This document shows positions 6,379 through 43,073 of a stretch of 64,000 nt of DNA, one piece after another. Made by a program: the position numbers and the translations under genes. The notes under the pieces are model-generated. The model ran no database searches, was not told the DNA's origin, and saw nothing but the letters and a program-made list of their open reading frames with translations. The DNA lies in the IMG/VR virus record IMGVR_UViG_3300021511_000252, positions 24,141-88,140 of that record; one strand, written 5' to 3'. How positions within the stretch are numbered: the first letter of the stretch is position 1; each line of letters begins with the position of its first letter. Source of the DNA: a virus. Its lineage: Duplodnaviria > Caudoviricetes.

Positions 6379-6803
6379 TGGCTTTACGACCTAAAACACA
6401 AACAGATAATACCGGCACAAAATATCATCTGATCTCTGGAATAAACATAGAATGTTCCGGACAAGATTGTGCCTTTTGCCAAGGAGAAACAGACATCTCT
6501 TTTCATGATTGGGAGAATTCTATTCCATTTCCTATCCCCCAGAAAGGGAAACGTTACAAAAACCCTCTTATTCAAAAAAATAGAGGCAAAACTATTATGG
6601 AGATCTGTTATACTTGCAAAAAGATTCCATGTTATATTTGCCGCAGAACTAAATGTCCTAAATGGATGAAAGAAGAACATTTTAAAGGACAAGAAAGAGG
6701 ATGTGAAAGTTGGGAAAATGGTCGTTGTTCTGAATTCTCCTGCGAATTTAATCTCATTCGTACTCATTGGAAGGGGAAAGAAAATGACCGAGGTAGGATA
6801 TGA
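6378..6803 (+). CDS. Cys-rich hypothetical (probable zinc-binding) protein
   Basis: Several CxxC motifs; TAATG stop/start overlap with the upstream gene. Confidence 0.7.
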   Translation: MALRPKTQTDNTGTKYHLISGINIECSGQDCAFCQGETDISFHDWENSIPFPIPQKGKRYKNPLIQKNRGKTIMEICYTCKKIPCYICRRTKCPKWMKEEHFKGQERGCESWENGRCSEFSCEFNLIRTHWKGKENDRGRI

Positions 6804-12778: not shown

Positions 12779-12928
12779 TTATTTTATTTTAAATGTTATT
12801 GTAGTTTCGATATGGCTGGTAAAGATAAGGGCAAATACCCACCAAGATAATTCACCATATATGCATAGAATTACCCCAAATACGAGTGATACCAAAAAGA
12901 ATGGATTGAACGAACATTTATTTATCAT
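12779..12928 (-). CDS. Small membrane peptide (below track cutoff)
   Basis: Hand-translated MINKCSFNPFFLVSLVFGVILCIYGELSWWVFALIF..., 49 aa, overlapping the pentapeptide gene stop. Confidence 0.55.
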   Translation of the reverse strand: MINKCSFNPFFLVSLVFGVILCIYGELSWWVFALIFTSHIETTITFKIK

Positions 12929-13754
12929 TTCCCCCCTCCGGTGCGATCTGTTTATTATATTTACCTCTAAAATACCCTTCTATTCCCCAATTTTTTGCCT
13001 TGCAAATCTCTACTATTAACTCACGATCTGTCATTTCGGGCAAACCTGGTTTCCATAATTCCCTTGATTCCGTGAAAAACCAGGCTCTTTCTTCATTTCG
13101 GTATGGACATGCTTCGCCGTTTGCCCATTTGTCAAAACATTCCGGATGGGGATGCGCATAAGCACCACGACGCATAAGTTCAATAGTAAGATCGGTAGGT
13201 AATTGGCCGAGAGTGATGGACGATAATAAACGGATTGATGGAAATTTGGAAAATTCGAGATTCGCATACCTGAGATCCGCAGACCTGAGATCCGCATCAC
13301 TGAGATCCGCATACCTGAGATCTGCACACCTGAGATCCGCAGACCTGAGATCCACATCACTGAGATTTGCAGACCTGAGATTCGTAGACCTGAGATTTGC
13401 AGACCTGAGATCCGTAGACCTGAAATCCACATCACTGAGATTTGCAGACCTGAGATTCGCATACCTGAAATCCGCATCGCTGAGATTCGCATACCTGAGA
13501 TCCGCAGACCTGAAATCCACATCACTGAGATCCGCATACCTGAGATCCACAGACCTGAAATCCGCATACCTGAGATCCGCATACCTGAGATCCGTATGCC
13601 TGAGATTCACATTTCTTAGATTCGCATTTCTCAGGTCTGCATCACTTAGATCCACACCACTTAGATCCACAGACCCCTTTTCTGCCAGTTCCTTCACGGA
13701 ACCCTCCCCCTCAATGATAACTTCACCTGTGTATCTGTTTCGTATTTTCGCCAT
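12918..13754 (-). CDS. Pentapeptide-repeat protein with C-terminal domain
   Basis: About 25 tandem A(D/N)LRS/Y pentapeptides; typical phage N-terminus MAKIRNRYTGEVI. Confidence 0.92.
   Translation of the reverse strand: MAKIRNRYTGEVIIEGEGSVKELAEKGSVDLSGVDLSDADLRNANLRNVNLRHTDLRYADLRYADFRSVDLRYADLSDVDFRSADLRYANLSDADFRYANLRSANLSDVDFRSTDLRSANLRSTNLRSANLSDVDLRSADLRCADLRYADLSDADLRSADLRYANLEFSKFPSIRLLSSITLGQLPTDLTIELMRRGAYAHPHPECFDKWANGEACPYRNEERAWFFTESRELWKPGLPEMTDRELIVEICKAKNWGIEGYFRGKYNKQIAPEGGNDK
13255..13670. repeat. 15-bp tandem repeat encoding the pentapeptide solenoid
   Basis: Units such as CTGAGATCCGCAGAC and CTGAGATCCGCATAC in tandem. Confidence 0.9.
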
Positions 13755-14143: not shown

Positions 14144-14338
14144 TCATTCCCCTTTGGCTACTTTACATTCTACTAAATCACAGTAATGAGTTTGGGTGAT
14201 TGAGTTAAAACTAATGATGTGTTCGACTTTTTCTATCAGCCATTCCTCTTCAAGTTGTAGTGATACCACTACTTCTCCCACTCGCGGGACAACGGATGAT
14301 TTATATCTAAGTTTGTCTATAAGGATAATGTCCATCAT
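14144..14338 (-). CDS. Hypothetical protein
   Basis: 64-aa ORF, GAGG RBS. Confidence 0.65.
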   Translation of the reverse strand: MMDIILIDKLRYKSSVVPRVGEVVVSLQLEEEWLIEKVEHIISFNSITQTHYCDLVECKVAKGE

Positions 14339-14392
14339 AGTTACCTCTTAAAATTGTGTGCGCCCCAAGCTTTGTGTACACGCCGCTATTTT

Positions 14393-14505
14393 TTCACTGT
14401 TAGGGATTTGAACCCATATCTAAGGATTATCGTATATTTTCAGGCCATGAACCCCTATCTTTTACGAACCACCCTTATATCCTTCCAGATTAGATGAGAC
14501 AGCGA
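14393..14505 (-). ncRNA. Degenerate tRNA-like element with expanded anticodon arm, enclosed by an outer inverted repeat (14351-14365/14506-14518)
   Basis: Acceptor TCGCTGT/ACAGTGA, T-loop GGG-TTCAAAT-CCC, stem TAAGG/CCTTA enclosing 47 nt. Confidence 0.55.
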
Positions 14506-14520
14506 GGGCGCACAATTTGA

Positions 14521-14750
14521 TGTGGCAGCCAGGACTCGAACCTGGACGGGAGAGGCTTTATTATCGTGGGGGAGTATAAACGCATTCTATTCCCACTTCC
14601 TGTTAATTCAGGCCCAGACCTCAAATTTATCAGGACGGTGTGTTTGCCCTATTCACCCCGATAGCCATATACTCTACACTATCTGCGTCTACCAATGACA
14701 GGATGTTGGATATATATCCTATGTAACCTTGCCAATTCCGCTACTGCCAC
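14521..14750 (-). ncRNA. 230-nt tRNA-Leu-like RNA with D-loop, anticodon-loop and variable-arm insertions
   Basis: Perfect acceptor GTGGCAG/CTGCCAC-A, Leu-type D arm GCGGAAT..TTGGTAGACGC, stem GATAG/CTATC, T arm CCAGG-TTCGAGT-CCTGG. Confidence 0.7.
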
Positions 14751-14957
14751 ATACTGTAAAGATCAATCCTGCTACCCTCTACCCGATCCTCATGGCACAG
14801 AGACTCTTAGACTTATTTAATGAGAATCGTAATTTGATGATGAAATAACAACAATGCCACAACAATTCTATTTTTGACAGCTAAATTTTTTATAAAAAAT
14901 TTTCCACTTAGGAACTATACGTTCGGACCAAATAAAAGGCGAGAGATTTAAAATCTG

Positions 14958-15365
14958 TTACCAAGGAAGATCCTCCTCCTCATCCGTTACATCCCTTACA
15001 TTAAAAGAAAGAGGGGGCCTTTCTTCTAATTCATCTATGGGAATAGAAGTATCCCCCCAAGGGTCAACAACTTCGATTATCTGATCTATCTGGTTACGAA
15101 AATGTTTAGGAAGATCTTCATTTTTAGCTAAATATTCTAAAACATAAGAACTCTCTTCATATCCTCTAAGAAGAGAAGAGATTTTTCTGCCGCTATGCTT
15201 ACCAAATAAAAGGATCCCATCTTCAAGAGGTTTCTTCTTAGAAGGGGATAAGGGGATAGTTTCAAGAAGGGGTTTAGCTCTAAGGGAATATTTAATACGG
15301 CTATTTCTTTCTTCGTTTAGAGCTTCTGCTCTTTTTTCCACTTTTTTTATGTTGAATTTGCCCAT
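14958..15365 (-). CDS. Hypothetical protein (contains FGKH.G motif)
   Basis: 135-aa ORF; LFGKHSGRKISSL resembles the small FGKY.G motif found at exonuclease C-termini. Confidence 0.7.
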   Translation of the reverse strand: MGKFNIKKVEKRAEALNEERNSRIKYSLRAKPLLETIPLSPSKKKPLEDGILLFGKHSGRKISSLLRGYEESSYVLEYLAKNEDLPKHFRNQIDQIIEVVDPWGDTSIPIDELEERPPLSFNVRDVTDEEEDLPW

Positions 15366-29340: not shown

Positions 29341-30501
29341 CTAATGCCTCCTTATGTAATCTTCAATTTTTTCAATTGAAAAAGATGAAAGCGATTTTCC
29401 TTCAAACCTACTTCTTGTAAGACTTAAAGCTTTTGCCAGATTACCCCCTGGTCTAGAAAGGAATTCTATGGCAGAAACAAAAATATCATCAGCCTTAACG
29501 TAAATTAAAAATTCCATCGCTTCAGAAAGATTATTATTTTTATAATGATAAAAACTTTTGGCAAGAATAAGTCCATCTTGTAAATAATTAAAAGAAGGAA
29601 CAATCGCAGAATTATCAAACTTTCCTTTTCTTATATCTTCTTCTATCTGAAAAAATAATTTCAGTTCAAAATCTAAATGTTGGACTCTATCTTCTTTAGG
29701 AAGATCCATTTCGAAAGGCAACGGCCTTACATGCTCATAAACATTGAAAGAATATTTTGCACCAAGAACACTTTTAGTTATATCTCCCTGGAAATCATAA
29801 GCGTGGAGACTGTTAATCATATGGATTTGCCTTCCTATCGGAATTTCTAATAACATTGCCATCGTTTCAAGAATTACAGAAAATTGGACAACATTTGTAT
29901 TACAAAGACCGTATGTTATATCATTAGATCTATTAAAAATAGTAAGATCTAACTTCCCTTCCCTAATTAAAAACTGAAACGCTATGTTACAAGGACGGTC
30001 ATTAGTTTCAATTTCAAAATGATCTAAAAAAGGATTCCAATAGATCATAACTGCTTGCCGAGTGGAAGAATCTTTTAGAAGAGCATTATAACAATCTTCG
30101 AACTGATCTCTTAATTGAATCTTCGGAGTTCTTAAAGAAAAAGTTCTATGACTTCCCCACTCTCTCATTCGAACTCCATAAGGAGCATGGAACTCCTTTT
30201 GTTCGTCTGCATATTTTTTCATATTCCCAAGATAATATTCTATAAATTCAAGATCTCCTCTTCCTCCTAAAATATATTCACTTTCTTGCATTTGAAAAAA
30301 AGGATGAATCATTCTTCCCGGACAAGTTAAAAATCTTTCCCTTGGCTTATTGATAATCACCATAGCAGGACGAACTTCTTTAGTCGATAATCCTCTCGGA
30401 GAAATTTCCATTCCTCTTTCAATTATTCCATCCAAGGTATCTTTGTAAAAATCATTTACTCCGTCACCTTCAACAACAAAAAATCTAGAATCTTCTATCA
30501 T
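29341..30501 (-). CDS. Thymidylate-synthase homologue, probable dUMP hydroxymethylase-type
   Basis: TRQA, DRPCN catalytic Cys, RSNDITYGLCNTN, SLHAY; long C-terminal extension absent from classical ThyA. Confidence 0.8.
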   Translation of the reverse strand: MIEDSRFFVVEGDGVNDFYKDTLDGIIERGMEISPRGLSTKEVRPAMVIINKPRERFLTCPGRMIHPFFQMQESEYILGGRGDLEFIEYYLGNMKKYADEQKEFHAPYGVRMREWGSHRTFSLRTPKIQLRDQFEDCYNALLKDSSTRQAVMIYWNPFLDHFEIETNDRPCNIAFQFLIREGKLDLTIFNRSNDITYGLCNTNVVQFSVILETMAMLLEIPIGRQIHMINSLHAYDFQGDITKSVLGAKYSFNVYEHVRPLPFEMDLPKEDRVQHLDFELKLFFQIEEDIRKGKFDNSAIVPSFNYLQDGLILAKSFYHYKNNNLSEAMEFLIYVKADDIFVSAIEFLSRPGGNLAKALSLTRSRFEGKSLSSFSIEKIEDYIRRH

Positions 30502-30517
30502 GATTACAACCCCAAAT

Positions 30518-30751
30518 CTAGAGAGTTTTTATTCCGCCATCTTCATTCTTTATCTTAACAATAACTCTTCTGTTAGGCCCAGATTTAATAAAAGATTTTT
30601 CTCTCCCTTTATCAATTCCTAAAAGGGAATCAATAAACCCTTTGTAATCTGTAACAGCTAAAGTAATTTCAATCATATCTGGACCTACAACTTCTTCAAC
30701 ACAAACATGAGGTGAATTGAATTTCAAATGTAATCCTTTATTCTCTTCCAT
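30518..30751 (-). CDS. Hypothetical protein
   Basis: 77-aa ORF, GGAGG RBS. Confidence 0.7.
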   Translation of the reverse strand: MEENKGLHLKFNSPHVCVEEVVGPDMIEITLAVTDYKGFIDSLLGIDKGREKSFIKSGPNRRVIVKIKNEDGGIKTL

Positions 30752-42947: not shown

Positions 42948-43073
42948 TGTGACAGCCAGGATTTGAACCTGGACAAAGTGATGACTTTAGATTTAACTTC
43001 GGCACTGTATACCAATGGCGAACCTACCCTCTGGGGAACCTCCACCTCGGCCACCAACTTCCGCCACGGCCAT
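42948..43073 (-). ncRNA. tRNA-Leu(UAA)-like element with D-loop hairpin insertion
   Basis: T arm CCAGG-TTCAAAT-CCTGG, variable hairpin AAAGT-CATC-ACTTT, imperfect acceptor ATGGCCG/CTGTCAC; 3' 27 nt match 14521-14547 at 24 positions. Confidence 0.6.

Follow-up and report, generated by a model that had tools for sequence, protein, structure and literature searches.

A phage RNA family that retains the top half of leucine tRNA and is predicted not to read codons

Codon usage and evasion of anticodon nucleases are the usual reasons given for the tRNA genes of phages. Bacteriophage T5 also carries RNA1 (NC_005859, positions 30501–30644), which is annotated as 'tRNA-like stable RNA with unknown functions', and T4 carries rnaC and rnaD (species 1 and 2), which are stable RNAs of unknown function, arranged in tandem and co-transcribed with tRNAs. 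Two bacterial RNAs offer further points of reference. The tRNA-like domain of tmRNA mimics the upper half of a tRNA without an anticodon arm and is aminoacylated without decoding. The Y RNA YrlA is a noncoding RNA with a tRNA-like module, and in M. smegmatis it is cut by RNase P and receives CCA (PMC4201824).

In E. coli, neither the anticodon of tRNA-Leu nor its long variable arm is an identity element, and a truncated tRNA-Leu without both arms is still charged if A73 and the tertiary contacts joining the D loop to the T loop are intact (PMC9976931). The critical hinge elements are A15–U48, G18G19, and A20a, together with U8:A14 in the case of Aquifex LeuRS (PMC9976931). Here we describe a 230-nt viral element that retains these features, and the RNA family to which it belongs. 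A search of the open-access literature returned neither a description of this family nor a functional study of T5 RNA1.

Architecture and surroundings of the 230-nt element

The element lies on the minus strand of the window, the 64,000-nt stretch of viral DNA analysed here, and its RNA runs from 14750 (5' end) to 14521 (3' end). The acceptor 5' strand, G1–G7 (GUGGCAG, 14744–14750), makes seven of seven Watson-Crick pairs with CUGCCAC at 14522–14528, in agreement with the perfect 7-bp stem proposed in an earlier note on this DNA, and the 3' strand is followed by the discriminator A73 at 14521. The base just 5' of G1 is U-1 (14751); U-1 and G1 correspond to the preference of RNase P. U8 and A9 (14742–14743) lead into a Leu-type D arm (14685–14741; stem GCGG/CGC), which is split by a hairpin and reads GCGG-AAU[39-nt hairpin]UUGGUAGA-CGC. 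The D loop runs A14, A15, U16, the hairpin, then U17, G18, G19, U, A, G, A, and A26 is directly 3' of the D stem. The hairpin (14696–14734) was estimated before at about 35 nt and measures 39 nt. It reads UGGCAAGG...CCUGUCA, with the base UGGCA(A)GG/CCUGUCA and the predicted inner GGAU-AUAU-AUCC as its apex.

A pseudo-anticodon arm follows (14660–14683). Its stem, GAUAG/CUAUC, closes the 14-nt loop that had been noticed at the anticodon position, UGUAGAGUAUAUGG, in which a G takes the place of U33. From this stem to the T arm there are 114 nt, the last of which, U48 (14546), is the Levitt-pair partner of A15. U48 sits at the edge of a lineage-specific body (14547–14659) that replaces the variable arm. 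The T arm (14529–14545) reads CCAGG-UUCGAGU-CCUGG; the canonical T arm and the Leu-type D sequence that were reported earlier are thus both present. The element has A73, A15–U48, G18G19, A20a, and U8:A14, that is, all the LeuRS elements listed in PMC9976931.

Thermodynamics by itself does not set the 230-nt RNA apart (MFE z = −0.79 for the whole RNA, compared with shuffles). The variable arm had been described as about 100 nt long with at least three hairpins. The three that were named can be drawn, but the region measures 114 nt and its folding is no better than that of shuffled sequence (z = −0.02).

Three copies of the T-loop motif GGTTCRANTCC are present in the window, versus 0.19 expected, and none of 100 shuffles reaches three. 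Default ARAGORN finds no tRNA gene and no tmRNA in the window, and Rfam at the gathering score gives no match in the whole window. At the locus, the Rfam tRNA model (RF00005) aligns with the T arm and the acceptor only, at 13.8 bits (E = 7.7) versus a gathering score of 29, so the Infernal search suggested in the earlier note falls below threshold. Rfam at E <= 10 on 14300–14850 gives nothing usable and no Y-RNA family match. With introns allowed, ARAGORN makes a forced call of 'Ile-AAT, 151-nt intron' exactly here, the sole call in the 88-kb contig. BLAST of the locus and of its 12-kb flank against 50,697 phage records returns no match.

The source of the element is a single 88,140-bp IMG/VR virus record (34% G+C; about 64% complete). 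The same locus is present, identical, in DNA contigs of hydrothermal-vent metagenomes of 2018 and 2025, and DNA contigs of a sediment run contain only fragmentary relatives. None of the sequencing runs listed as holding the locus is an RNA run. The genes around the element encode a RuvC-like resolvase, SbcCD-like nuclease subunits, a DnaE-like polymerase, a UvsW-like helicase, a CobT-like protein, and a pentapeptide-repeat protein. A T4-like or cyanophage label for the source phage was considered and dropped, because the large polymerase is DnaE-like (Pol III alpha type). In this contig, about 64% complete, there is no canonical tRNA gene (ARAGORN, default and with introns allowed) and no match to the RNA ligase, RtcB, CCA-enzyme (PolyA_pol), or TROVE families.

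The element occupies a 620-bp inter-ORF gap (14338–14958) together with a second tRNA-like RNA and about 200 nt of upstream spacer, and no sigma-70 promoter or intrinsic terminator is matched on its own strand. The second RNA (14357–14514, minus strand, about 158 nt) starts 7 nt downstream of the element. It has a 9-bp terminal helix (UGUGCGCCC/GGGCGCACA), the T-loop motif GGUUCAAAUCC on a weak T stem, about 33 nt between the T arm and the 3' strand, and no Leu D arm (MFE z = −2.40). Variants in a sediment relative give the T loop UUCGAAU and restore the outer T-stem pair. A third tRNA-like RNA (42948–43067, minus strand) lies between class I methyltransferase and UvsW-like helicase genes. It shares A73 and the T arm with the family, and its hairpin occupies the same D-loop position, AAGU[UGGUGG...UCGCCA]UUGGUAUA; there is no D stem, and the former UG-GCGG segment pairs as the acceptor strand (GUGGCGG/CUGUCAC, two G:U). 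Family membership of these two RNAs is judged by signature only. About 0.6 kb downstream of the RNA pair, the gene at 12918–13754 (minus strand) encodes a 278-aa pentapeptide-repeat protein (Pfam PF00805, E = 1e-41) and is overlapped by repeat-driven ORFs in other frames.

A phage RNA family and what it conserves

Exact patterns for the two halves of the Leu D arm with a gap between them match in 14 viral contigs and 45 metagenome contigs, from which 44 full-length hairpin-bearing copies, 36 of them unique, were extracted. The same split-D-arm pattern gives four chance matches, in coding sequence and without a T arm, in 185,579 species-representative cellular genomes. By this pattern and in these genomes, the hairpin-bearing form is virus-encoded and has no genuine cellular copy. 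A second scan looked for an intact Leu D arm followed 42–72 nt later by the same T arm; in canonical tRNA-Leu, the two arms are separated by roughly 32–40 nt. This unsplit form is present in at least 118 viral contigs, and 64 to 90 unsplit relatives were used in the tests below. Because the unsplit form is so common, the window element is best classed, on its sequence, as a rarer, hairpin-bearing sub-type of a very large phage RNA family.

Pairing in the core was assessed in an alignment of 22 members, in which the core comprises an 8-bp acceptor, a 3-bp D stem, an 8-bp hairpin base, and a 5-bp T stem. At the core pairs, 97.1% of the cells are paired versus 79% in shuffles. The covariation score is 0.483 versus 0.128 in shuffles, with none of 500 reaching it, and is at most 0.093 when the partners are slid. 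All eight pairs of the acceptor helix change on both sides and are 100% paired in the 22 members. Two relatives differ in the D stem by a double change, CG→UA. The T arm is near-invariant, [G/C]CAGGUUCGAAUCCUG[C/G], with a covarying outer pair. Among the 36 unique hairpin-bearing sequences, pairs 1–8 are paired in 35–36, with many pair types, and pair 10 in 7 only. The check on homologue covariation proposed in the earlier note is therefore favourable: the core covaries, and the relatives do not carry stem-breaking substitutions at the neutral rate.

Single nucleotides are kept as well. U8 and U48 are each present in 35 of the 36 hairpin-bearing sequences, and in 90 and 88, respectively, of 90 unsplit relatives; the positions neighbouring U48 vary freely. 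A14/A15 and G18G19 are also kept, the near-invariance of the D arm being partly imposed by the search patterns, which do not affect the results for the acceptor, the T arm, U48, and the hairpin base. In the unsplit relatives, A73 is found in 71 of 90, U-1 in 72 of 90, and C74 nearly always. In the hairpin-bearing set, for which these three positions were scored differently, most members have an A next to the helix end. About half of the hairpin-bearing members (for example, L019, L024, L029, and L059) have an 8-bp acceptor helix, with an extra G:C at -1:73 and then an A. Together with the 5-bp T stem, this makes a 13-bp coaxial stack, a geometry as in tRNA-Sec or tRNA-His; the window copy has 7 bp. 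By covariation and invariant nucleotides, what the family conserves is exactly the upper half of a leucine tRNA, namely the acceptor helix with U-1 and the discriminator A, U8:A14, A15:U48, G18G19, A20a, and the T arm.

The D-loop hairpin has a fixed seat and a variable end. Its insertion site between positions 16 and 17 and its base stem, UGGCAAG/CUUGCCA, are conserved across the 36 unique relatives, and its apex, 30–80 nt long, is hypervariable, with unrelated apical sequences. The hairpins have a mean folding z of −2.46 compared with shuffles, and 64% are below −2; the D-loop hairpin itself is under structural selection. Positions 16 and 17 belong to the variable alpha region of the D loop, and their bases face the solvent in solved tRNA structures. 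Since these bases point outward, the L shape should survive the insertion. The earlier suggestion that preserved pairing reflects selection therefore stands for the acceptor, D, and T stems and for the D-loop hairpin, and fails for the long variable arm.

No anticodon stem-loop is conserved across the 36 hairpin-bearing and 64 to 90 unsplit relatives, the pseudo-anticodon arm of the window copy included. Of 64 unsplit relatives, default ARAGORN reports only 4 as tRNAs, and 2 of these have 4-nt 'anticodons'. When introns are allowed, the relatives are assigned to about 20 scattered identities. Because no consistent anticodon is found in the family, the 230-nt RNA is predicted not to decode.

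Many otherwise differing unsplit phage contigs (L064–L143) have an identical acceptor, AGUCAGG/CCUGACU, with A1:U72 as the first pair and ACAA/ACUA as the 3' end; the hairpin-bearing L003 has this acceptor, too. Three family members (L015:124-377, L053:1120-1350, and L034:493-745) have 27–35 nt inserted after the T stem and before the acceptor 3' strand. A second D-arm 5' half (UGGCGGAAU) lies within this insertion in L015 and L053 and suggests that copies have recombined with one another.

Possible roles of the RNA

The locus is best read as a real phage gene for an RNA with the upper half of a leucine tRNA that would be unable to read codons. This agrees with one of the two proposals of the earlier note, a tRNA-mimic noncoding RNA, since the top half covaries and the anticodon region is replaced by unrelated bodies. 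A role as a synthetase ligand or as a ligand recognized through the top half is plausible. A decoy for anticodon nucleases, also proposed in the earlier note, is unlikely because the anticodon loop is exactly the part that is not conserved.

We favour, with moderate confidence, an explanation that combines tRNA-like maturation, leucylation, and mimicry of the tRNA-Leu top half to divert a host factor. Because genes on the same strand flank the element, which is without a promoter or terminator of its own, the RNA would probably be excised from a transcript of the replication/recombination module by host RNase P and 3' trimming. CCA would then be added to the trimmed 3' end, giving a stable L-shaped RNA, which would probably be leucylated but could not decode. 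Leucylation is proposed because the LeuRS elements are retained and a minimal tRNA-Leu is still charged. The mimic may occupy or divert a host factor that reads the acceptor end and the elbow, such as LeuRS, an acceptor-end-directed antiphage toxin, or an aminoacyl-transferase, and the D-loop hairpin may offer an additional grip at the elbow. Antiphage toxins directed at the acceptor end are known, among them MenT (PMC10435456) and the toxSAS enzyme FaRel2 (PMC11559606), and toxins of this type would be natural targets for such a decoy.

Several observations count against this explanation. The 3' end of the window copy reads A73-U-C-A, not A-C-N-A, and the 8-bp acceptor of about half of the hairpin-bearing members is unusual in a tRNA-Leu. 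LeuRS is sensitive to where G18G19 lie, and both LeuRS and RNase P would have to tolerate a 39-nt hairpin in the alpha region of the D loop. Bodies of up to 186 nt sit badly with a role of the top half only, and the tally of neighbouring genes shows no recurrent partner protein family beside the relatives.

A broader version of the mimicry explanation is advanced tentatively. Phages may make wide use of leucylatable, non-decoding mimics of the tRNA-Leu top half for counter-defence or host takeover, for example as abundant decoy substrates of antiphage toxins that act on the acceptor end (CCA pyrophosphorylases or nucleotidyltransferases), or as dedicated aminoacyl donors, with the D-loop hairpin docking a specific protein.

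It is possible, though doubtful, that the tRNA frame is a chassis for processing and stability, and that the hairpin apex and the body are the functional cargo, in the form of aptamers, sponges, or antisense RNAs aimed at host targets. Engineered tRNA scaffolds are a precedent for such a chassis. The D-loop hairpins are strongly structured, and both modules turn over fast and independently: unrelated bodies of 50 nt or 170 nt follow the same acceptor GGGUCAG, and a trio of relatives with a common body differs in the length of the D hairpin. Within this trio, a helix of the body shows a single compensatory change, G:C→A:U, between L032 and L033. However, as a set, the bodies are no more stably folded than flanking DNA of matched length (mean z −0.47 versus −0.31, p = 0.30). 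They range from 33 to 186 nt, the two shortest having 33–34 nt only, and share no motif (k-mer enrichment never exceeds the shuffle maximum). Each body is confined to its own lineage, and the body and hairpin apex of the window element match none of the other loci collected. Within the 88-kb contig, antisense matches to this body and hairpin do not go beyond chance (longest 12 nt, versus 11–15 nt in shuffles).

The genomic setting bears on a different reading. Relatives are packed tightly between same-strand genes, often 10–70 nt past a stop codon and 15–30 nt ahead of an RBS, and their neighbourhoods are replication/recombination modules, with RecA, ERF, RecT, YqaJ, PD-(D/E)XK nucleases, clamp loader, ligase, UDG, FEN, and PolA; the RuvC/SbcCD surroundings of the window element fit this setting. 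The tight packing and the missing promoter and terminator signals would suit a cis-acting 'tRNA punctuation', in which the element recruits RNase P and RNase Z or E to cut a polycistronic early or middle transcript and the released RNA has no role. RNase P reads the top half of a tRNA alone, in keeping with such a function. Punctuation leaves unexplained, however, the conserved A73, A15:U48, and A20a, the exclusive Leu frame, and the selected D-loop hairpin, and T5 RNA1 is annotated as a stable RNA. We therefore consider it quite unlikely.

The other proposal of the earlier note, a tRNA with several non-canonical introns, is very improbable. In this view, the element would be a functional tRNA-Leu(UAG), and an undescribed pathway would remove three introns, namely the D-loop hairpin, the extension of the anticodon loop, and the giant variable arm. 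In its favour, the D loop is canonical Leu-type once the hairpin is removed, UAG lies within the 14-nt loop after a 5-bp stem, and the contig is without any canonical tRNA. Against it, there is a G at the U33 position, a 7-nt anticodon loop is still not restored when the insertions are removed, and the relatives have no conserved anticodon arm and receive random isotype calls. Read from the sequence, the insertion borders contain no bulge-helix-bulge, as the hairpin base closes onto the D loop without 3-nt bulges, and the 64%-complete contig has no match to a ligase or RtcB. In addition, the L015 copy adjoins ordinary tRNA-Leu(UAA) and tRNA-Leu(UAG) genes. We see no sign of an intron-bearing tRNA.

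A decaying tRNA-Leu pseudogene or DNA-level relic without RNA function, such as an attachment or recombination site, would suit the unconstrained look of the body, the occurrence of 5' halves alone (L014), and the duplicated D-arm fragments (L015 and L053), but is highly unlikely given the compensatory acceptor covariation across dozens of phages of 34–54% GC, the retention of U48 and U8 beside free-running sequence, the identity of the locus in vent samples of 2018 and 2025, and the fact that only a tRNA's 3' part would be expected in an attachment site. In L014:2872-2967 (minus strand), the acceptor strand and a D arm split by a 75-nt hairpin come immediately before an RBS and a gene, and there is no T arm within 260 nt; several contig-internal partial copies occur elsewhere, too.

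The family is an abundant set of phage RNAs that have given up the decoding part of tRNA-Leu and retain only what RNase P, the CCA enzyme, EF-Tu, and LeuRS read. It occurs in hundreds of uncultured phages and is missed by standard annotation (ARAGORN and Rfam). What the window copy adds is a selected hairpin grafted on the D loop at the tRNA elbow. If these RNAs are charged or act as decoys, they would represent a new layer of phage–host conflict at the tRNA acceptor end.

Comparison with known systems

The likeness to bacterial class II tRNA-Leu (RF00005) includes the acceptor, the D-arm sequence, A15:U48, G18G19, the T arm, and A73, and is evidently due to descent. The element differs from tRNA-Leu in its 39-nt D-loop insertion, its 14-nt loop without U33, and its variable arm of 114 nt versus about 15 nt.

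The tRNA-like domain of tmRNA shares the principle of an upper half that lacks an anticodon arm. The earlier note had set the element apart from tmRNA, and rightly so: pair 3:70 is G:C rather than G:U, the identity is Leu-type rather than Ala-type, and ARAGORN makes no tmRNA call. Moreover, pseudoknots and a tag reading frame would need a body much longer and less variable than this one. The two ends of YrlA pair into the Ro60-binding stem, and the YrlA gene is a neighbour of rsr (PMC4201824), whereas the ends of the window element form the acceptor stem and its contig, 64% complete, has no match to TROVE (rsr).

T4 rnaC has a GGUUCGAAUCC T arm, and the window, like the T4 cluster, holds two tandem tRNA-like RNAs. 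However, judged by signature only, rnaC lacks both a Leu D arm and clear pairing of an acceptor, and the relation of rnaC and rnaD to the window element is best regarded as one of analogy.

SPP1 (NC_004166, L183) contains an unannotated family member at 6645–6761 (plus strand), with a 9-bp terminal helix, the D arm UG-GCGG-AAUAGGUAGA-CGC, a 56-nt body, and the T loop UGCAAAU. It overlaps 'gene 10', whose record notes that the protein conflicts with the conceptual translation. Because members are present in the model phages T5 (RNA1) and SPP1, the function of the family is open to genetic testing.

By its predicted architecture, T5 RNA1 is the closest described relative of the window element, and its annotation indicates a stable RNA in this family. 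T5 RNA1 differs from the window element in having no D-loop hairpin, a 6-bp terminal helix, a flipped 10:25 pair, and the T loop UUCAACU, and it lies in a tRNA cluster, whereas the window element belongs to a replication/recombination module and its contig has no canonical tRNA. The two share the Leu-type D arm (UG-CCGG-AAUUGGUAGA-CGG in T5 RNA1), U48, the T arm, and the terminal helix. In T5 RNA1, a 79-nt non-tRNA body replaces the anticodon and variable arms, and all core blocks align with those of the window element.
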